Part shown: piece after piece, positions 17,476-54,961 of the stretch | Position numbering within the stretch: position 1 is the first letter of the stretch | How the letters are laid out: the number at the start of each line of letters is the position of its first letter | Virus record (IMG/VR): IMGVR_UViG_3300031758_000005 | Direction: 5' to 3' (one strand) | From: a virus | Lineage: Duplodnaviria; Heunggongvirae; Uroviricota; Caudoviricetes | Length of the DNA stretch: 56,411 nt | The notes under the pieces: model-generated | The model's input: only the letters and a program-made list of their open reading frames with translations | What the model was told of the DNA's origin: nothing | The model's database searches: none | Program-made: the position numbers and the translations under genes

Positions 17476-18615
17476 ATGGCAAAAAAAAGTGTTAGTAAAG
17501 ATACGGGTCAACGTGACGAGCTTATCGAAATGTTGGCAAATGAATTAAATAAAGCAAATAAAGACGGTGGAAAGATTGCTCATTTTCTAGATGAACAAGA
17601 CAATCCATCTGAAATCACGGATTGGATTAGCACTGGTTCTTCTATTTTGGATTTGGCGATTAGTAATCGTCCTCACGGCGGATTACCAGTTGGTAAAATG
17701 GTAGAATTTAACGGCCTCGAAGGTACTGGTAAAAGTTTGCTATCCGCACACGTTGTTGCCGACACTCAGAAGAAAGGTGGAGTTGCAGTAGTAATTGATA
17801 CTGAAAATGCAGCTGCTCCTGAATTCTGGAGAAGTTTGGGTGTAGATCTATCCAAGTTACTATATGTTCAATGTGAAACCGTTGAAGATATTTTTGCTCA
17901 GATGGAACGAATGATTGCTATTGTTCGTAAGAGCAACAAAGATCGTATTCTAACAATTATCGTTGATTCTGTAGCAGCGGCATCAACCAAGGTAGAACTT
18001 GAAAGTGACCACGGTAAAGATGGTTATGCTACGGGTAAATCAATTATTATCAGTAAAGCAATGCGTAAGATTACCACTATGATTGGTCGTCAGAAGGTTC
18101 TTACTGTATTCACCAACCAATTGCGTCAGAATCTAAATGCTATGGCATTTGGTGACAAGTATGTAGTAAGTGGTGGTAAGGCACTTGCTTATCACTGTAG
18201 TGTTCGTGTTCGTTTGAATAATACTGGTAAACTCAAAAAGGGTGAAGAGATTATTGGAAACGAATGCAAAGCAGTTGTTGTGAAGAATCGTATGGGTCCA
18301 CCACAACGTCAAGCTAGTTTCGATATTTATTTTGATTCTGGAATTGCAGATTATGGTTCTTGGATCAAGGTATTGAAGGAAAATAACTTGGTGAAGCAAG
18401 GTGGTGCTTATTATACATATAAGAAGACCGATGGCAGTGAATGGAAGTTCCAATCCAAAGACTTTGTAAACATTATGCAAAGTGACAAGGAATTGAGTGA
18501 AGAAATTTACTTGAAGATTTGTGACGCTGTAATTATGAAATACAAAGATCCTAATAGTCAAATCATTGACGATGCTGTAGTTGAAACAGAAGAAACTGCA
18601 GGCAACGAGGAATAA
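17476..18615 (+). CDS. uvsX: RecA/UvsX recombinase
   Basis: ISTGSSILDLAI, GGLPVG, Walker A GLEGTGKS, IIVDSVAA, NQLR, GGKALAY; start moved to ATG 17476. Confidence 0.93.
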   Translation: MAKKSVSKDTGQRDELIEMLANELNKANKDGGKIAHFLDEQDNPSEITDWISTGSSILDLAISNRPHGGLPVGKMVEFNGLEGTGKSLLSAHVVADTQKKGGVAVVIDTENAAAPEFWRSLGVDLSKLLYVQCETVEDIFAQMERMIAIVRKSNKDRILTIIVDSVAAASTKVELESDHGKDGYATGKSIIISKAMRKITTMIGRQKVLTVFTNQLRQNLNAMAFGDKYVVSGGKALAYHCSVRVRLNNTGKLKKGEEIIGNECKAVVVKNRMGPPQRQASFDIYFDSGIADYGSWIKVLKENNLVKQGGAYYTYKKTDGSEWKFQSKDFVNIMQSDKELSEEIYLKICDAVIMKYKDPNSQIIDDAVVETEETAGNEE

Positions 18616-18631
18616 AACACATTGATAGGAT

Positions 18632-18691
18632 GTTTTTCCGCATTGCCTACTATTTATTAGTATGGATAACAATGCGGAAAAACTTTTTTTT
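18632..18691 (+). promoter_or_regulatory. Hairpin sequestering the endonuclease start codon and TATTTAT motif, followed by a T-run
   Basis: Perfect 14-bp inverted repeat GTTTTTCCGCATTG (18632-45) / CAATGCGGAAAAAC (18670-83), inner TACTA/TAGTA stem, ATG at 18662. Confidence 0.75.
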
Positions 18692-19594
18692 GAAGATCAA
18701 TCTGAACGATTATATCAAATCTTTATAAAAGATGAATCGATATGTGGATTTGCTTCTTTATTTAAACTAAATAAAATTGGTAGCAAAATCGGATCAAAAA
18801 TAAAAAAATATTTATATGATAAATATGGTGAAACTTATTTGAAAAAAATAAGTGCTGTTAGAACGTCTAAAGTTGCTCATCAAAAAAGATCCAAAGATAG
18901 TTATTTTATTTCTTCGGAAAGAAGACAAAAAATGTCTGTTGGTATTAAAAAATATTATAAAAATAATCAGTCCGCTAAATCTAGATGTAGGGATTTAATG
19001 ATTAAACATTGTTTACCAAAGTGTCAAACAATTGAGAGTAAAATAAAACGAGTAAAAAGTAGAGACTGGTATAAACCCAGTGAAGACACTAAACAAAAAA
19101 TGTCGCAATCACAACTTGGAAAGCCATTAACAGAAGAACATAAGTTAAAATTAAGAAAACCAAAGAAAGCCAAACGATCTAATTTTAGACATACTATTGA
19201 AACAAAACACAAATTATCGTTAATTACTAAAAATCAGTGGAAAAGTGGAATTCATAAACCAATTTTTAAATCTAAAGGCCAGCAGGAAGTAATTAGATTG
19301 TTAAAAGAACAAGGATATTCAATTCAAGATGAATATGTTGTTGGGGGGAAGCCATACGATGTGTTTGTAAAAGAAAAAAATTTATTAATAGAATTTAATG
19401 GTACTTATTGGCACAGAGATCCTAGATTTTTTACATCGTCCGATGAAGTTATTAAAATATGGGAAAAAGATAAAAATAAAATGTTGATTGCTGAATCGAA
19501 TGGGTATATAATAAAAGTTATATGGCAACATGACTGGGAACAATGTAAAGACAAAAATATATACATTAAAAAACTATTAAATGAGCAACTTTGA
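18662..19594 (+). mobile_element. Free-standing homing-type endonuclease (NUMOD3-like repeats plus Vsr/DUF559-like nuclease domain)
   Basis: Basic repeats SEDTKQKMSQSQLGKPLTEEHKLKLR and HTIETKHKLS; C-terminal YDVFVKEKNLLIEFNGTYWH...GY.IKVIWQHDW; more AT-rich than flanking replication genes. Confidence 0.75.
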
Positions 19595-19709
19595 CAACAA
19601 AGAAATGAAGAAATTATTTTCTTTATTTCAAAACATAGAAAGCGATTCCGTCACCGGAGGACTTAAAAAATCACTTAATAGTGATGTCCTTTTGGTTGAC
19701 GGATTGTAG
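19581..19709 (+). CDS. N-terminal 42-aa segment of the 5'-3' exonuclease/RNase H (missing from the ORF track)
   Basis: MSNFDNKEMKKLF...NSDVLLVDGL-TAG; ends in the first catalytic motif (LLVDG) of FEN/T4 RNase H-type nucleases. Confidence 0.75.
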   Translation: MSNFDNKEMKKLFSLFQNIESDSVTGGLKKSLNSDVLLVDGL

Positions 19710-20653
19710 TGAATACTTACATTAGAAGTTTTATGGCCATTCCTTCTCTCAATGAGGATGGATTACATACAGGTGGTATTGCTGGTTTTTTGAAAAGCAT
19801 TGGGTATGCAATTAAATTACTTTCTCCTACCCGAGTTATTATTGTATTTGATGGTAAAGGTGGTAGTCAGAAACGCAGAAAGATTTATCCAGCGTACAAA
19901 AATGGTAGAAAGACAGATATTAGACTCAATCGTAATTACGAAGAACTATCGTCATCTGAAATAGAATCTGTAAATTTTAAAAAAGAATTAATTCGTACTA
20001 TAAATTATTTAGATACATTGCCTGTTACTGTAATGGCGATTGATCAAATAGAAGCAGACGATACAATTGCTTATTTAGCTACAGAAACTTTTAAGGACAG
20101 TAATGTAACAATTATGTCCACTGATAAAGACTTTTTACAATTGGCAAACGATAAAGTCAAAATTTGGAGTCCTGTCAAAAAGAGAATTTTTGGTTGTAAA
20201 GAAATCTTGGATGAATATGGTGTTACATGCAGCAACTATATCTTGTATAGAGTTATGGAAGGTGATGTAAGTGATAATATACCTGGTTTAGATGGTGTAG
20301 GTTTAAAACGTGTAGTAAAATCATTTCCTTTCTTATCAGAAGAACGTCAATATGATCTGAATGAGATTTACAATTACGCGGAGAATAACAAGAGTAAATA
20401 TAAAGTATATCAGACTGTATTAGACAACAAGTTATTACTTGAACGTAATTATAGTTTGATGCAGTTGAAAGATACGCAAGTGCAATCATTTACCCAGTTA
20501 CGTATAGAAGAAATTATAAAATCTCCTGTACGTAGAATTGATAAAATGAGCTTTTCTAAATTAATCACAGAGGACAAAATGTGGAATAATATCCCCAATT
20601 ATCACATTTGGCTCAATGAATGTTTCGGTAAATTAAATAGTTTCGTAGAATAA
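19709..20653 (+). CDS. rnh: 5'-3' exonuclease / flap endonuclease (T4 RNase H-like), main segment
   Basis: NTYIRSF, IVFDGKGG..RR..YP.YK..R, EADD.IA, STDKDFLQ, GD.SDNIPG..GVG.K; the GTG start overlaps the upstream TAG. Confidence 0.85.
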   Translation: MNTYIRSFMAIPSLNEDGLHTGGIAGFLKSIGYAIKLLSPTRVIIVFDGKGGSQKRRKIYPAYKNGRKTDIRLNRNYEELSSSEIESVNFKKELIRTINYLDTLPVTVMAIDQIEADDTIAYLATETFKDSNVTIMSTDKDFLQLANDKVKIWSPVKKRIFGCKEILDEYGVTCSNYILYRVMEGDVSDNIPGLDGVGLKRVVKSFPFLSEERQYDLNEIYNYAENNKSKYKVYQTVLDNKLLLERNYSLMQLKDTQVQSFTQLRIEEIIKSPVRRIDKMSFSKLITEDKMWNNIPNYHIWLNECFGKLNSFVE

Positions 20654-20713: not shown

Positions 20714-22096
20714 ATGGAAAACAAAAAAGCAATTGATTCATTAACAAAATACGGTCGTGACTTCCAAATCAAGTGTATTTCGTGCTTAATATCTGATCGT
20801 TCATTTATTGAACGTATTAACGATATTATCGAAGTAGATTTCTTTGAAAGTGATGCAAACAAGTGGGTTGTAAAAGAAAGTATTAAATACTTTAACGAGT
20901 ATAAAGATCTACCAACCTTAACCGTATTTAAAATTAAAGTTGATGAAGTAAATGATGAGCTTCTCAAACGAAGTATCGTAGACAATCTAAAGTTAGTTTA
21001 CCAAAAGGTAAGCGACAATGATTTGAAGTTTGTCAAAGAACAGTTCTTGGAATTCTGCAAAAATCAGAAACTAAAGAATGCTATTATTGAAAGTGCAGAC
21101 CTATTGGCACTTGGTCAATATGAAAAGATCAAGAATGTAGTTGATCACGCAATGAAAGCTGGTATGGAACGTAATATCGGCCACGATTATACTGAAGACG
21201 TTGAAAAACGTATGAGTGTAATGAGTCGTAATTGTGTCAAGACCAATTGGACTGAAATTGATACTATTATGGACGGCGGATTAGCAGCTGGTGAATTGGG
21301 TATTATTACAGCTTGTGCAGGTAGCGGTAAGAGTTGGGTACTATCTAAGTTAGGAGCTGAAGCTATGAAACAAGGTAAGAACGTAGTTCACTTCACTCTA
21401 GAATTGAATGAAAACTATGTGGGTCTTCGTTATGATGCTTGTTTTACTGGAATTGATTTCCAGAACATTCGTAACAACGTAGACATCGTAAAGCAGAAGA
21501 TTGCTGATGTGCCTGGCAAGTTGAAGATCAAGTACTTTCCAATTAAAACTGTAAGTGCTTATAGTCTTAAGGCTCATTGTGAACGATTGGCAGTACTAGG
21601 CACCAAAGTTGATATGATTATTGTTGACTATGCTGATATTCTACGTCCCTCACAGAGTGAACGTAATAGCAATAGTTATAGTGAAGCTGGTGGTATTTAT
21701 GAAGAACTTCGTGGTGTAGCTGGTGAATTACAAGTTCCTATTTGGAGTGCTTCACAGAGTAATCGTGCTGCTATGGATGAAGATATTATTCAGGCTAACA
21801 ACATTGCTGATAGTTATCGTAAGATTATGACCGCTGACTTTGTTATGAGTCTAAGTCGTAAAGTTAACGATAAACAAGCAAATACTGCACGATTCCACGT
21901 AATTAAGAATCGTTTCGGACCAGATGGTTTGACATTCCCAAGTAAAATGAACGCTGGTTGTGGTCACATCGAAATTTATGGCGAAAATAGCCGTGAGGGT
22001 ATGAGCATCTTGAATGAAATGATGGATGGTGAAAATCAAGTCAAAAAGGCTCTAAAATCCAAATGGAACGTTCATAACAACGATGATGAAGAATAA
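20714..22096 (+). CDS. Replicative helicase (DnaB / T4 gp41-like)
   Basis: GGL..GELG, Walker A AGSGKS, TLEL, IIVDYADIL, SASQSNR, KNRFGPDG. Confidence 0.92.
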   Translation: MENKKAIDSLTKYGRDFQIKCISCLISDRSFIERINDIIEVDFFESDANKWVVKESIKYFNEYKDLPTLTVFKIKVDEVNDELLKRSIVDNLKLVYQKVSDNDLKFVKEQFLEFCKNQKLKNAIIESADLLALGQYEKIKNVVDHAMKAGMERNIGHDYTEDVEKRMSVMSRNCVKTNWTEIDTIMDGGLAAGELGIITACAGSGKSWVLSKLGAEAMKQGKNVVHFTLELNENYVGLRYDACFTGIDFQNIRNNVDIVKQKIADVPGKLKIKYFPIKTVSAYSLKAHCERLAVLGTKVDMIIVDYADILRPSQSERNSNSYSEAGGIYEELRGVAGELQVPIWSASQSNRAAMDEDIIQANNIADSYRKIMTADFVMSLSRKVNDKQANTARFHVIKNRFGPDGLTFPSKMNAGCGHIEIYGENSREGMSILNEMMDGENQVKKALKSKWNVHNNDDEE

Positions 22097-25634: not shown

Positions 25635-26189
25635 ATGGAAATCATTTTTGAATATCTTGAAAAAATATTGGTAATAAGCGCAGCTGGTGGCGTACTTTTT
25701 GGCGCTTTTAAGTGGATATTTACACTGAATCGGAATGTGAAGGAGATTTTGAAAGAAGTTAAGCCTAATTCTGGAACATCACTAAAAGATCAAGTTGCTA
25801 AGATTGAAAAACAGGTAAGTTGTGATAGTAATTTAATAAATACCATATGTAGAAGACAAAAATGGATATTGGATACTAGACCCGAACCAATATTTGAATG
25901 TGATGTCAATGGTAATTGTACGTGGGTAAATGAAAAATATTGTCAATTATTGAAACACGATGTAGAATATTTCTTGAATAATGGATGGAAAAACGGTGTA
26001 CACGGAGAAGATTTAGAAATGGTGGAAAAAGAGTGGGAAAGAGCTATTAAAGATAAAAGAAGTAGCACCAGTATACACAGAATGATTGATAGAGAAGGAA
26101 ATGTATATAACGTTAAAGTAGTAGCAACCAGAAATAATGGTTATGGGTATATAGGACATATTGAAGTATTAGACGATAAAAAAGATTAA
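25635..26189 (+). CDS. Membrane-anchored PAS-domain protein
   Basis: N-terminal hydrophobic helix, coiled coil, then IFECD.NG.CTWVN..YC.LL......GW...VH.ED...V..EW, a PAS signature. Confidence 0.7.
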   Translation: MEIIFEYLEKILVISAAGGVLFGAFKWIFTLNRNVKEILKEVKPNSGTSLKDQVAKIEKQVSCDSNLINTICRRQKWILDTRPEPIFECDVNGNCTWVNEKYCQLLKHDVEYFLNNGWKNGVHGEDLEMVEKEWERAIKDKRSSTSIHRMIDREGNVYNVKVVATRNNGYGYIGHIEVLDDKKD

Positions 26190-31415: not shown

Positions 31416-32600
31416 ATGGATGCGTTACAAGAATACTTTGGAGTAGAAGCATTTGATTTTGAGGGAAACAAACGAAAATTAATTGATAATCTTAATTTGT
31501 TAAAAGCTATGTCTGTAGAAGAACAGACCTTTTACAAAAAGTGGTTGGAAATACAAACTTGTGAAAGTTTATCCAGTAAGGCTAATACAATTAAAGCTAG
31601 AATTTGGACTCCCACTGATATCAATGATGAATCTTTAACTATTAAAGAAATAGAAAGTATAAATCCAACGTTAGTGTATGTTGAAACAAAACAACAAAAT
31701 GAAGACTGGACGATTCTTCGTATTTTTGGTCATACAATGACATTTGACCAAACTCCTGGTAGATTTATTAAATTTCTTGTAACCGATGGTAATGTTGATA
31801 GTCCAAAGTATATTGGTTGTATTAGTGTTTCCAGCGATGTAATTGCTATTACTGATCGTGATAATTATTTGGGGTGGACTACAACTGATAAAATGGATAA
31901 CAAACGATTGGCACATAGTGCAATTGGTAGTTGTATTATGAGTACCCAACCAATTGGTTATAATTTTCTAGGTGGTAAATTAGTAGCTGCTATGATTACC
32001 ACATCAACTGTACGTGATCTTTGGAAACAATTATACGATCAAACTCTTGTGGGTATGACAACTACAAGTTTGTATGGTAGTTATAGTATGTATAACAGTT
32101 TAAAATGGTGGCACAAATGTGGTAGCAGTGCTGGTAAAATTTCAATTAAACCAGATGATAGTATTTATGAAACTTGGCACAATTGGTTGAAAGACATTGA
32201 TGTAACTGCTTATGATAAAGCACTCACTCAAAAAGAAGGAGTAAGTGGACCTGTAACTGGAGCCAAATCTCGTATTCTTGGTATGATATTTAGTAAATGT
32301 GGTATAAAACAATCCAATTATCAACACGGATATGAACGAGGTGTATATTATAGTTGTTTTTATGAAAATACCAAAGAGTTTTTACAAAGCAAAATAGGTA
32401 TTGATCAATTGAATATGAAAGACCTCTTTAAACGTGATATGCAAGGGGTAATTGAGTGGTGGCGACCAAAGGCTGTAGATCGATATAAAAAGCTAAAGAG
32501 TGAATCAAATTTAAAGAATACAGTACATTTTTATAACCAGATGTTTGGGATGTCTTATCAAGAAGCTAAAGACACATATTTCAAAGAAGTTGGTAGATAG
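31416..32600 (+). CDS. DUF4338 / Druantia DruA-like protein
   Basis: PGR...FLV.D, RD.YLGW, QP.GYNFLGGKL.A, W...Y...LVG.TTTSLYG..S.YN motifs. Confidence 0.65.
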   Translation: MDALQEYFGVEAFDFEGNKRKLIDNLNLLKAMSVEEQTFYKKWLEIQTCESLSSKANTIKARIWTPTDINDESLTIKEIESINPTLVYVETKQQNEDWTILRIFGHTMTFDQTPGRFIKFLVTDGNVDSPKYIGCISVSSDVIAITDRDNYLGWTTTDKMDNKRLAHSAIGSCIMSTQPIGYNFLGGKLVAAMITTSTVRDLWKQLYDQTLVGMTTTSLYGSYSMYNSLKWWHKCGSSAGKISIKPDDSIYETWHNWLKDIDVTAYDKALTQKEGVSGPVTGAKSRILGMIFSKCGIKQSNYQHGYERGVYYSCFYENTKEFLQSKIGIDQLNMKDLFKRDMQGVIEWWRPKAVDRYKKLKSESNLKNTVHFYNQMFGMSYQEAKDTYFKEVGR

Positions 32601-33696: not shown

Positions 33697-33725
33697 TTGA
33701 CTTATTATAAATTTGTTGGTAAGAT
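33697..33725 (+). promoter_or_regulatory. Sigma70-like extended -10 promoter
   Basis: TTGACT-N17-TAAGAT preceded by TGG. Confidence 0.65.
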
Positions 33726-33732
33726 GATAGCA

Positions 33733-34644
33733 ATGAAAAAATCATTGTGCTGTATTTCTCTTCAACTTCAAGAAAAAGGACTCAAAGCTAATACTATGAC
33801 CAAGACTAGATTCTTGGCATTGGAACGAAAAAATGCTTTATCTACTGTTTCACAGCGTACCTTGAACAATGTAAATGTTGCGGTAAATACCTTTTCTTTT
33901 TGTATAAGTAAAGGATGGAATTATCGAATTAGCAGTGATTTATTTCCATTGGCTACTTTACCCGAAGCAAATTTATCGTTTGATGTTCTTCCTGACAAAG
34001 ACCGTATTTATGCTGAATTCAAACGTGGTGCTGAAATTATTAAAAAGAACAATTTACGATGTAGTACACATCCCGATCAATTTGTTGTGCCTGCAAGTGC
34101 TACAAAGACTGTTGTGGAAAAGTCTATTATTGAACTAAAAAACCATGCATCTATTATGGATTTATTTGGTTTGCCACAATCATATGAAGCTCCTATTAAT
34201 ATTCATATGAATTGTTATAAAGGCAATGCCAAAGATATTGCTAAACGTTTTATTGATGTGTACAATAATTTTCCTGTAAATGTAAAGTCTCGATTGGTAC
34301 TTGAGAATGAAGACAAGCCAAACAGTTGGAAGGTAGAAGAATTGTATGAATTAATTTATTCAAATACTGGCATTCCTATCACTTACGACAATCTTCACTT
34401 TCGTTGTAACCCAGGCAAATTGTCTGCTAAAGAGGCAGTTAAATTGGCTACGTCCACTTGGGGAAATCATCGTCCGCTATTTCATTTCAGTGACAACGAT
34501 CTAACCAACAAGAATCCACGTGCGCACGGTGATTATGTACGCAGTGTTCCAGATGAATATGTTGATCTTGATGTAGATTTTGAATTTGAATTCAAAGCAA
34601 AGGACTATGCTCTTGATCGGTTTGAAAAAGAATTCAAAAAATAA
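33733..34644 (+). CDS. uvsE: UV-damage endonuclease UvsE
   Basis: YRISSDLFP, R.STHPDQF, INIH, RLVLENED, IPITYDNLH, FHFS, AH.DY, E.KAKD; start moved to ATG 33733. Confidence 0.9.
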   Translation: MKKSLCCISLQLQEKGLKANTMTKTRFLALERKNALSTVSQRTLNNVNVAVNTFSFCISKGWNYRISSDLFPLATLPEANLSFDVLPDKDRIYAEFKRGAEIIKKNNLRCSTHPDQFVVPASATKTVVEKSIIELKNHASIMDLFGLPQSYEAPINIHMNCYKGNAKDIAKRFIDVYNNFPVNVKSRLVLENEDKPNSWKVEELYELIYSNTGIPITYDNLHFRCNPGKLSAKEAVKLATSTWGNHRPLFHFSDNDLTNKNPRAHGDYVRSVPDEYVDLDVDFEFEFKAKDYALDRFEKEFKK

Positions 34645-52744: not shown

Positions 52745-53437
52745 TTATTTTTGATTAAATTGATTGTTGTCTCTTTCTGCGATTAACTGACTATATTTTT
52801 TCGGTGTTTCCGATTTATTTAAATTTGCATATAATGATTCAATTGTATTGGGACTACTTGACTCAGACACTACGTTATCTTTTTTTTTAACATCGGTGCT
52901 GCCAAATCCTCCATCACCTCTATCTGTAGAATCTAATTCGTCTACCAGAATAAATTCTACATTTTCAACTTTGGTTACTTTAAGTTGACAAACCTTATCA
53001 CCTTTGTTGTAGAGTTTACTATAATTTACAGTTCCTTCTAATAGATTATCGGTTCTAATTTTATAGTCTTCTGGTTGCCATTGATATTTAAAACGAAGTA
53101 ATACTTCTCCACGATAATCTGCATCGATCAATCCAATACAATTAGCCAATACTAAATTATATTTACTAACGCTACTACGAGGAAATGCTAGAATGTCATA
53201 GTCTAAATCGGTATGACCAAAATTACTAAACACTTTTTCTTTTTGTACAGCTAGTTTAAGATTGGTCTTATACTGAATATAATCTACTCGTTTGTATGCA
53301 CCGTTATCATATGTTTCCCCAATTATCTCTGGGCCACTTGTAACAATTACATCAAAACCAGTAGCTCTATCAGTACCTTTCTTTGGCAAATTACTTGTTT
53401 CTTTATAATCTTCGTTCTTTAATACTTGAATCTTCAT
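52745..53437 (-). CDS. dut: dUTPase (trimeric type)
   Basis: A.GFD, PRSS, GLID.DYRGE, GDK..QL, RG.GGFGST. Confidence 0.92.
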   Translation of the reverse strand: MKIQVLKNEDYKETSNLPKKGTDRATGFDVIVTSGPEIIGETYDNGAYKRVDYIQYKTNLKLAVQKEKVFSNFGHTDLDYDILAFPRSSVSKYNLVLANCIGLIDADYRGEVLLRFKYQWQPEDYKIRTDNLLEGTVNYSKLYNKGDKVCQLKVTKVENVEFILVDELDSTDRGDGGFGSTDVKKKDNVVSESSSPNTIESLYANLNKSETPKKYSQLIAERDNNQFNQK

Positions 53438-54405
53438 AGAGCCGATACTTCTTGTTTGATCTTATCAATATTAATTTTATGCAAATCTATACCCATCTTT
53501 CCATTGGGTTGACTCTTAATATCATAACCATACTCAGTGAAAATATCAAACTTTTTAGTTGGTTTAAAATTTTCAATAGTGAAATCCATTGCTTTGATGA
53601 ATTGATCGCACATATTCTTTGCATTAATACCACCTTCATTCATTGCCCACAATCTACCTTCCAATCCACATTCTTCACGCTTTTCGGAACCGGCTAGATA
53701 CCAATACATAATTGCATCTGCAATGTCTGAATAATTTGTTAAATCATCCATAATATATGGGGTAGGTGGACTACCTTGCATATTTTGTACTTTGGGCCAT
53801 ACTGGTTTAGCCCATTTGCCGTGATTTGTATATTTTCCAGATGCATTTGTACCAAATTCCAAATTAAATTCAATTGCATTACCATTATCATCTACGATAC
53901 CTAGTTGATCTTGTAGACCACCTGTTACAGTAGCTATGACAGGTGTACCACACATAATAGCTTCTGCAACACTCAAACCAAATCCTTCATTAGAACTTAC
54001 ATTTGACAACACATCGGCTAAGTTATAAAAAGCACACATTTCGTCTGGTGACCAACGAGATTCGTTTAATACGACCTTGTATTCTGGACAAATCGACGCA
54101 ATCGTTGCAACCAAATCTGTACCAGCTTCACATACTTTATCAGTATGCATTACCAATGCACATTTACTAGCTTCTTCTTTTGTCAAAGAATCACAAAATG
54201 TTCTAAATGCTAGAATAAGATTGGCGGGGTGTTTACGATGTGCATTTCGACTATTAAATGCTACAATGAAATTATAATCGCCGTCACCCAACAATTCTTT
54301 TTTAATTTTTTGAACAGCTGGATTATTCTTTTCCAATACTCTAAATTCATTGCTGTTAATACCGTGTGGCACCAAATGCAATAGATGTTTTCCGTTTACT
54401 GGCAT
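53434..54405 (-). CDS. GT4-like glycosyltransferase, C-terminal (donor-binding) half
   Basis: VPHGI, NSRN..RK, SNEGFGLS..EA..CGTP.IA..TGGLQDQ; own SD AAGGAG. Confidence 0.8.
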   Translation of the reverse strand: MPVNGKHLLHLVPHGINSNEFRVLEKNNPAVQKIKKELLGDGDYNFIVAFNSRNAHRKHPANLILAFRTFCDSLTKEEASKCALVMHTDKVCEAGTDLVATIASICPEYKVVLNESRWSPDEMCAFYNLADVLSNVSSNEGFGLSVAEAIMCGTPVIATVTGGLQDQLGIVDDNGNAIEFNLEFGTNASGKYTNHGKWAKPVWPKVQNMQGSPPTPYIMDDLTNYSDIADAIMYWYLAGSEKREECGLEGRLWAMNEGGINAKNMCDQFIKAMDFTIENFKPTKKFDIFTEYGYDIKSQPNGKMGIDLHKINIDKIKQEVSAL

Positions 54406-54406
54406 A

Positions 54407-54961
54407 TTATAGGTTCTCCTTCTTTATAATGTTTCCGTTGTTGTCAAAGTCTCCAAAGATACTGGTACAATTTTCTGGTCCTAGTACCCATTTGTTAATA
54501 TTGTCTGTTTGTTTGCTAATAGCGAACAATGCGTCACAACATTTGTAAAATGGTTTGTTCCACATAGGATATGGTAGATCGTCCCAAATGTCTAAGTAGG
54601 TTAGAGGAATTTTAGAACGAATCTGATTTTCAATATTGTACAACCATCCCCAGAAACGTGGATCTGTAAAGTGCATAATTGCATCTGGTTTTTCTAGAGA
54701 CATGATTTGAAATAGAATTTCTTCATCACCATAACCATCTACAGGATATAATCTGAGATAGTTATCATTTCGTCCATTGAGTTTATCAACAGCTTCTTTC
54801 ATATCAACGATTTTACCTTGTTCAGGGTGTTTAATGGCACCAGCTATTTGCACCCAATCGTAATGCTGTACGGTGCCTAAGACAAGTTCCCTTGACATTG
54901 TTGCGATACCACTATGCATTCTTAGATCGTCGCTCAATAATAATATTTTTTTCTTCTTCAT
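54407..54961 (-). CDS. GT4-like glycosyltransferase, N-terminal half
   Basis: KILLLSDD.R..SG.A, PDAI..FTDPR, IWDD.PYP, ISKQT. Confidence 0.75.
   Translation of the reverse strand: MKKKKILLLSDDLRMHSGIATMSRELVLGTVQHYDWVQIAGAIKHPEQGKIVDMKEAVDKLNGRNDNYLRLYPVDGYGDEEILFQIMSLEKPDAIMHFTDPRFWGWLYNIENQIRSKIPLTYLDIWDDLPYPMWNKPFYKCCDALFAISKQTDNINKWVLGPENCTSIFGDFDNNGNIIKKENL

Follow-up and report, generated by a model that had tools for sequence, protein, structure and literature searches.

Programmed bypassing is established for gene 60 of phage T4 and its homologues and for the yeast mitochondrial byps, and supporting data exist for phage Hau3. As described in excerpts of a preprint by Manning and Atkins (10.1101/2022.08.31.505936), the T4 system has a gap of about 50 nt in the gene for a topoisomerase large subunit, which is also split in two, and this gap adjoins the free-standing endonuclease MobA at a conserved catalytic motif. 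The stop directly follows a Gly/Asp take-off codon, the landing codon is wobble-matched, a 5′ stem-loop is proposed to push the ribosome, and the gap itself holds a take-off/A-site hairpin and a mini-SD. The T4 gene 60/MobA element also features a nascent-peptide signal, a joined protein product, and a gap that blocks cleavage. Excerpts of the Hau3 report (PMC10732093) describe terminase bypasses of 10 nt (and 7 nt) with proposed 5′ stimulators (a stem-loop and a flanking SD), a junction intolerant of added residues, a hungry UUA codon as trigger and a proposed regulatory role; three genes are known, and the description includes no homing endonuclease. The synthetic "stop-hops" of Weiss et al. 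(1987), recounted in excerpts of a 2016 review (PMC5009743), were low-level events in which a stop lies between matched codons and nine bases yield one residue, and according to the same excerpts no natural in-frame stop-hop was known. Two further systems concern genes that are split rather than bypassed. In Aeh1 nrdA/mobE, the endonuclease lies between halves that bear terminal extensions, the second half having its own start, and the fractured genes of Dassa et al. (2009), in the excerpts used (PMC2677866), also have the endonuclease between the halves.

The locus described here lies in a window of 56,411 nt, the whole stretch of DNA that was analyzed, whose gene content (matches to tail tube, gp32, RecA, and helicase) is that of a large tailed phage of a lake. 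On the plus strand, a recA/uvsX gene (17476 to 18615; PF00154, E value of 1.1e-53) is followed by a putative homing endonuclease gene (18662 to 19594), a 5′-3′ exonuclease/flap endonuclease gene and a DnaB-like helicase gene (20714 to 22096; PF03796, E value of 1.5e-22). The exonuclease reading frame opens at an ATG at 19581 and stops after 42 codons (19581 to 19709), ending in VLLVDGL-stop and including Asp40. The letters read GAC (19698 to 19700), GGA (19701 to 19703), TTG (19704 to 19706), TAGTG (19707 to 19711), and AAT (19712 to 19714), and because intact relatives read DGL-NTYIRSF free of any gap, the window carries exactly 5 nt extra. Within this coding gap, the stop (19707 to 19709) overlaps a GTG (19709 to 19711) that may be a landing triplet or possibly a start codon. 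Judging from the sequence and the family comparison, the UUG of Leu42 (19704 to 19706) would be the take-off codon. The rest of the enzyme spans 313 codons from the resume codon AAT (19712 to 20653; PF02739, E value of 8.9e-27, above the cut-off); the GTG at 19709 opens a 314-amino-acid (aa) open reading frame (ORF) ending at 20653, and the downstream frame is already open four codons ahead of AAT (RIVV). By comparison of the sequences, the gap is the end of a mobile cassette that has taken the place of the first part of the exonuclease gene; we consider it probable that ribosomes hop over it to make one full-length enzyme.

The arrangement resembles T4 gene 60/MobA, as far as the excerpts describe it, in its adjoining free-standing endonuclease and its position at a conserved catalytic motif. 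Nevertheless, we keep the two families apart because gap length, internal hairpin, and host gene all differ: the gaps found here measure 5 to 11 nt, which leaves no room for an internal hairpin or a mini-SD, and the host gene is an unsplit 5′-3′ exonuclease gene (PF02739). Hau3 is similar in its short gap with 5′ stimulators. Unlike the Aeh1 genes, the two parts here are 5 nt apart and without extensions, and the endonuclease lies upstream of both; as to a start for the second part, the window allele has a GTG, and a start codon is offered by 2 of 29 junction types overall. Unlike the fractured genes, the locus has no intein or intron and no endonuclease between halves. In a literature search that covered few subscription papers and no bioRxiv supplements, no description of an exonuclease stop-gap element was found.

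The earlier note on this DNA had reported the 5-nt TAGTG between DGL and NTY, and the insert is real: it stands in the window sequence, in 29 of 80 related loci (79 to 100% protein identity) and in contigs of all four runs, with zero differences and a word depth of 8 to 31. The evidence here is assembled contigs rather than raw reads, and every one of the runs is flagged as one from which the window DNA may have come; with the relatives included, an assembly error was rejected. One run (X13) holds both alleles, and its intact allele resembles the window starting exactly at 19712. RNA runs X15 to X20 contain 6 to 15% of the window's words. An alternative genetic code was also rejected because the TAG has an in-frame TGA behind it and each of the three stops occurs among relatives; the TGA likewise means that stop readthrough alone cannot rescue the window allele. 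Micro-excision in the manner of a group I intron (a U ahead of the excised stretch and a G as its last base) was discarded, as it fits the window allele in one register and not the 6-nt types, and so was an intron or known RNA family, Rfam having returned three chance hairpin matches far below the gathering score. No tRNA genes were found in the window. The best cultured matches were Microcystis phage Mel-JY01 (43%) and Flavobacterium phages (36%), and MAG labels were scattered.

A search of IMG/VR with the downstream protein, in which no stop was forced, yielded 80 loci, comprising 29 with TAGTG, 1 with a 6-nt insert, and 50 intact; among those with TAGTG, the endonuclease was complete in 16, reduced to a remnant in 2, and absent in 11. 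Patterns that required a stop behind D-G-L/F codons produced 138 matches (87 exonuclease genes, 51 dropped), a pattern for 6-nt inserts run on metagenomes produced 67 (41 real, 26 dropped), and a search starting from the endonuclease, again not requiring a stop, produced 78 loci (32 with an adjacent exonuclease gene, 46 dropped); rows dropped before counting had no exonuclease match at the junction. Inserts were present in 29 of the 32 endonuclease-side loci, and all 29 began with a stop, as did all 30 carriers among the 80 loci of the downstream search. A pattern search for inserts of 1 to 12 nt starting with A, C, or G, set against an estimated 2700 intact stretches, returned 61 matches, none of them at an exonuclease junction. 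In total, we collected 188 carrier loci (redundant across searches) with 29 junction types of 5, 6, 7, or 11 nt, all at one codon and together using all three stop codons, in genes spanning 31 to 100% identity to the window protein. A stop directly after the take-off codon, the arrangement described in the T4 excerpts, was present in every type found. Because relatives carry 29 versions of the break behind the same predicted hairpin, ribosomes likely hop over the gap.

In alignments of an intact relative with FenA and with the Pol I enzymes of Taq and mycobacteria, Asp40 corresponds to FenA Asp9 by match coordinates, and since the FenA D9A variant retains 0.2% of flap endonuclease activity (excerpts of PMC5934675), the gap splits an essential Asp from the remaining enzyme. 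The downstream part in the window is 100% identical to the corresponding stretch of the intact allele L001. A full-length downstream ORF was present in 172 of 172 carriers with 1000 nt of downstream sequence, and the motifs EADD, GDxxD, and YKxxR in all 72 distinct carriers; DKD was found in 55 of 72 carriers versus 81 of 90 intact genes. The ratio dN/dS was 0.03 to 0.28 in 12 of 16 pairs, the other 4 being saturated, values that partly reflect history before invasion. A carrier-only clade of 14 members, in which no endonuclease was seen, has diverged to dS 0.5 to 1.25 with dN/dS 0.11 to 0.16 while varying its stop and landing codons. In four of four carrier records, 25 to 89% complete, the gap gene is the sole PF02739 match. 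These sequence comparisons indicate that exonuclease function is kept in carriers. It is accordingly most improbable that the cassette inactivates a dispensable gene and spreads by homing alone, the host Pol I supplying the function: homing can indeed spread costly alleles, and close carriers appear recently invaded, but the unbroken ORFs, the constraint within the diverged carrier clade, and the compensatory hairpin changes described below all speak against it. The TAGTG gene is therefore very probably not a pseudogene, and the insert, which recurs in relatives with intact downstream ORFs, is not a singleton.

The codons on either side of the gap are related. The last gap triplet equals the preceding codon at positions 1 and 2 in 17 of 20 six-nt types and in 19 of 29 types overall (permutation p of 6e-5, the types not being independent). 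At position 3, only 5 of the 20 six-nt types agree, and a matched type is present in 15 of 19 cassette lineages. The landing match tracks the take-off codon (CUN to CUN, UUG to UUA, UUC to UUA, ACC to ACA, and, over a gap of 11 nt, CUU to CUG), the take-off codons of the family being Leu (CUN, UUR), Thr, and Phe, as opposed to the Gly/Asp given in the T4 excerpts. The match at positions 1 and 2 is absent in 10 of 29 types, 5 of which share fewer than two positions. Compared with the wobble-matched landing codon described for T4, the window allele (UUG to GUG) matches at positions 2 and 3 only, with a mismatch at position 1, and such first-position mismatches recur (CUG/GUG, ACU/GCU, CUC/GUC). 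The 6-nt types have exactly the arrangement of the synthetic stop-hops as recounted in the excerpts of PMC5009743; here, a structured stimulator and strong selection on the sequences suggest programmed use.

The earlier note had offered two routes to the enzyme, a hop over the stop and two coupled chains, and only the hop has gained ground, from the stop that always comes first, the codon matching, and the hairpin. On the two-chain route, translation would end at the TAG and restart at the overlapping GTG, and a 42-aa peptide with Asp40 would assemble with a 314-aa chain. TAGTG does have the shape of a one-base stop/start overlap, and Aeh1 nrdA and T4 gene 39/60 are working examples of split genes next to endonucleases (excerpts of 10.1101/2022.08.31.505936). 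A start codon stands at the junction in only 2 of 29 types, though, both of them GTG; no Met occurs within the next 12 residues in 47 of 72 carriers; the closest cassette relatives of the window carry TAGTTA or TAACTT, without a start codon; neither part has gained a terminal extension, and both lie downstream of the endonuclease; and a hairpin in fixed register is left unexplained. An SD-like motif precedes only 5 of 46 window starts, and the window GUG follows a structured, G/U-rich stretch, whereas the starts of other genes are A/U-rich. A split enzyme is thus a weak option for the family and unlikely overall, reinitiation at the GUG being possible in the window allele. A hop with relaxed P-site pairing covers all the first-position mismatches, because ACU/GCU and CUC/GUC cannot reinitiate.

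A shorter slip would add one or two residues (for example DGL-V-NTY) through a −1 frameshift or +2 hop here and through readthrough in the 6-nt types. The frame open for four codons before AAT (RIVV) and the imperfect landing match of the window allele would suit it. On the other hand, the spacing from D-G to R is identical in Taq and mycobacterial Pol I, no sense insertion was found at the junction (0 of the 61 pattern matches), and the 5-, 6-, 7-, and 11-nt types would each require a separate event, with all three stops in use, so that we regard such a slip as quite unlikely. The intolerance of added residues recalls the Hau3 junction as described in the excerpts of PMC10732093.

The hop would have a structural stimulus in a long predicted mRNA stem-loop (19642 to 19707; core 19647 to 19703, plus strand; z of −5.7 for 19636 to 19711), which the earlier note does not mention. 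Its 3′ arm is made up of the LLVDG codons, and its end lies at the take-off codon; a small hairpin is also predicted upstream in the coding sequence (19602 to 19629, plus strand). In the folding model, the long stem-loop is the presumed driver of the hop. The 90 nt ending at the take-off codon gave z below −2 in every one of the 43 carrier haplotypes (median −5.4) compared with 54 of 127 intact genes (median −1.5). In a test independent of folding, an exact complement of the gene's own Asp-Gly 5-mer lay upstream in 48 of 57 carriers versus 9 of 130 intact genes, and the version with the wrong wobble base in 0 of 57 carriers. The Asp wobble base is paired in the predicted fold in all 57 carriers (C-G in 41, U-A in 16), and among 32 stems in the same register, each of the 12 cells that depart from Watson-Crick pairing at three core positions is G-U. 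The predicted carrier hairpin is therefore covarying, with compensatory changes, a conserved element where the 5′ stem of gene 60, according to the preprint excerpts, is not conserved between clades. The end of the stem falls 2 to 7 nt ahead of the landing triplet in 43 of 43 junction contexts (6 nt in 22), the geometry that would be expected if a stalled ribosome is pushed by mRNA that refolds on leaving it, the mechanism put forward for gene 60. The stem takes in bases of the take-off codon in 11 of the 12 contexts that change frame versus 8 of the 31 that keep it, which may, as a lead only, compensate for a poorer match. Stem reach did not scale with gap length (Spearman 0.15, p of 0.32), structure 3′ of the landing site was not stronger in carriers and was slightly weaker than in intact genes, and the whole-stem strand bias of folding energy did not exceed that of intact genes (49 of 57 carriers versus 97 of 130) and was uninformative.

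Codon matching and the stem-loop are, at the sequence level, two signals that point to decoding. They bear on the idea that the gap is removed at the RNA level before translation, by a jump of RNA polymerase or hairpin-guided excision: a stem ending at the junction could conceivably act on the transcribing polymerase, and many gaps are flanked by short direct repeats, yet the matching concerns codon positions 1 and 2 with the third free, the in-frame stop always comes first, and no Rfam family reached threshold. We hold this to be very unlikely. As separate observations, 31 of 57 carriers have an SD-like motif (GGAG/GAGG/AGGA) 2 to 16 nt 5′ of the stem base (in the window, about 19631 to 19645), compared with about 19% of intact genes at like offsets, the carrier sequences being related and window genes rarely using an SD; this recalls the SD flanking the stem in Hau3. 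Some intact genes (L069, L076, L248, L252, L266, and others) also fold strongly in this region (z of −6 to −7) and may descend from carriers.

Comparison with the intact allele L001 delimits the mobile element. Window and L001 share 99% identity up to the recA stop, 57 to 67% across the 60 nt preceding the gap and 97 to 100% beyond 19712; because identity drops and then returns at 19712, we place the cassette, of about 1.1 kb, at 18616 to 19711 (plus strand), with the gap as its end. It comprises the endonuclease gene, the recoded exonuclease start, and the 5-nt gap, so the 42 upstream codons belong to the insertion. The same edge appears in four further close pairs, and the last 29 cassette codons differ by dS 0 to 0.05 between carriers whose downstream genes differ by dS 0.5 to 1.15 or more. 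An endonuclease or its remnant lies between recA and the exonuclease gene in 29 of 72 distinct carriers versus 0 of 124 intact loci, those 124 being the ones found from the nuclease side, so that the proposed association of insert and upstream endonuclease is supported, and the cassette edge coincides exactly with the insert. On a tree of 162 sequences, carriers (which are over-sampled) and intact genes interleave with 34 parsimony changes. In its element-borne recoded flank, its gap outlasting the endonuclease, its use of more than one endonuclease family, and its mobility with an adjacent endonuclease, seen here by comparison only, the cassette parallels T4 gene 60/MobA as described in the excerpts.

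The window endonuclease (18662 to 19594, plus strand; 310 aa) overlaps the exonuclease ATG, as the earlier note had stated, by 14 nt, and has a NUMOD3 motif and a C-terminal Vsr-like nuclease domain. It matches PHROG 559 (HNH endonuclease, E value of 2.5e-16) and PHROG 3339 (homing endonuclease, E value of 1.2e-10), and in Pfam MTES_1575 (E value of 1.2e-7) and NUMOD3 (E value of 0.008), both below the cut-off; we call it Vsr-like partly on the strength of a motif. Among 29 carrier endonucleases, 16 are of this Vsr-like/NUMOD3 kind and 13 are HNH-NUMOD3. A predicted hairpin (18622 to 18693, plus strand; −26.6 kcal/mol, z of −5.8, 0 of 200 shuffles as stable) buries the endonuclease ATG (18662) and likely represses its translation, and hairpins of this sort are described for phage homing endonucleases in excerpts of PMC3014915. 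The endonucleases of fractured genes, in the excerpts of PMC2677866, are similar both in combining NUMOD3 with a Vsr-like domain and in having an upstream hairpin able to outlast the endonuclease. Three endonuclease-bearing loci have an intact exonuclease gene, namely, L438 and L439 (with the motif N-L-F) and L445 (with a frameshifted endonuclease), and the gap is therefore not the sole way to coexist. In L438 and L439, N-L-F replaces N-T-F, possibly an alternative route to immunity. In L002, L004, L013, L057, and L065, the endonuclease is gone and an inverted repeat, recognized by eye, is kept at the place of its repressing hairpin. L063 has a cassette-type gene start with an intact junction, no driver hairpin (z of +0.1), and no endonuclease, its gap likely lost through recombination, and in L184 a Mom-family gene (887 to 1591; PF25680, E value of 1.7e-40) occupies the carrier spacer instead of an endonuclease.

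In the hopping mechanism that we favor, the ribosome would pause when its A site holds UAG and its peptidyl-tRNA-Leu is paired to UUG, and in its wake the mRNA would fold back into the long stem. As the final stem pairs, in the Asp-Gly codons, would need forward movement of the ribosome, folding would push it 3′, and the tRNA would re-pair 5 nt on at GUG, through positions 2 and 3 only, before decoding resumes at AAU to give D-G-L-N-T-Y. In mixed infection, the endonuclease would cut intact alleles near the conserved motif, and recombination would copy the cassette in, the gap and recoded flank then protecting the carrier; later, the endonuclease gene would often be lost, with hairpin and gap persisting. 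By analogy to T4, the gap would destroy the endonuclease target, although the recoded 5′ flank alone could do so. We lean toward the wider view that these are widespread natural minimal programmed bypass elements, each with a single covarying 5′ stem-loop that drives the ribosome 5 to 11 nt past a stop and sets the landing well enough for codon matching to relax (UUG to GUG); that unrelated endonucleases (Vsr-like, HNH) thereby disrupt their target tracelessly inside a catalytic motif; and that the 6-nt members are natural in-frame stop-hops. Wills et al., in excerpts of their 2024 preprint (10.1101/2024.12.09.627546), propose that, as mRNA emerges from the ribosome, its pairing causes forward movement, and that selection should favor a push reaching no farther than the landing site. 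The family provides 29 natural variants whose chief conserved signal is the stem and whose gap is only a few bases long, and this proposal is therefore directly testable in a cassette of roughly 150 nt. In phage annotation, stop-gapped exonuclease genes are likely being mistaken for pseudogenes or for truncated proteins.

Elsewhere in the window, two ORFs on the minus strand (54407 to 54961 and 53434 to 54405) lie one base apart and are possibly a split gene; the second matches glycosyltransferase group 1, and the first, which has no Pfam match, presumably resembles the N-terminal half of a glycosyltransferase, as judged from a motif. The plus strand also encodes a PAS-domain protein (25635 to 26189), a phage-encoded DruA-like protein (31416 to 32600; PF14236, E value of 3.9e-22), and a UvdE UV endonuclease (33724 to 34644).
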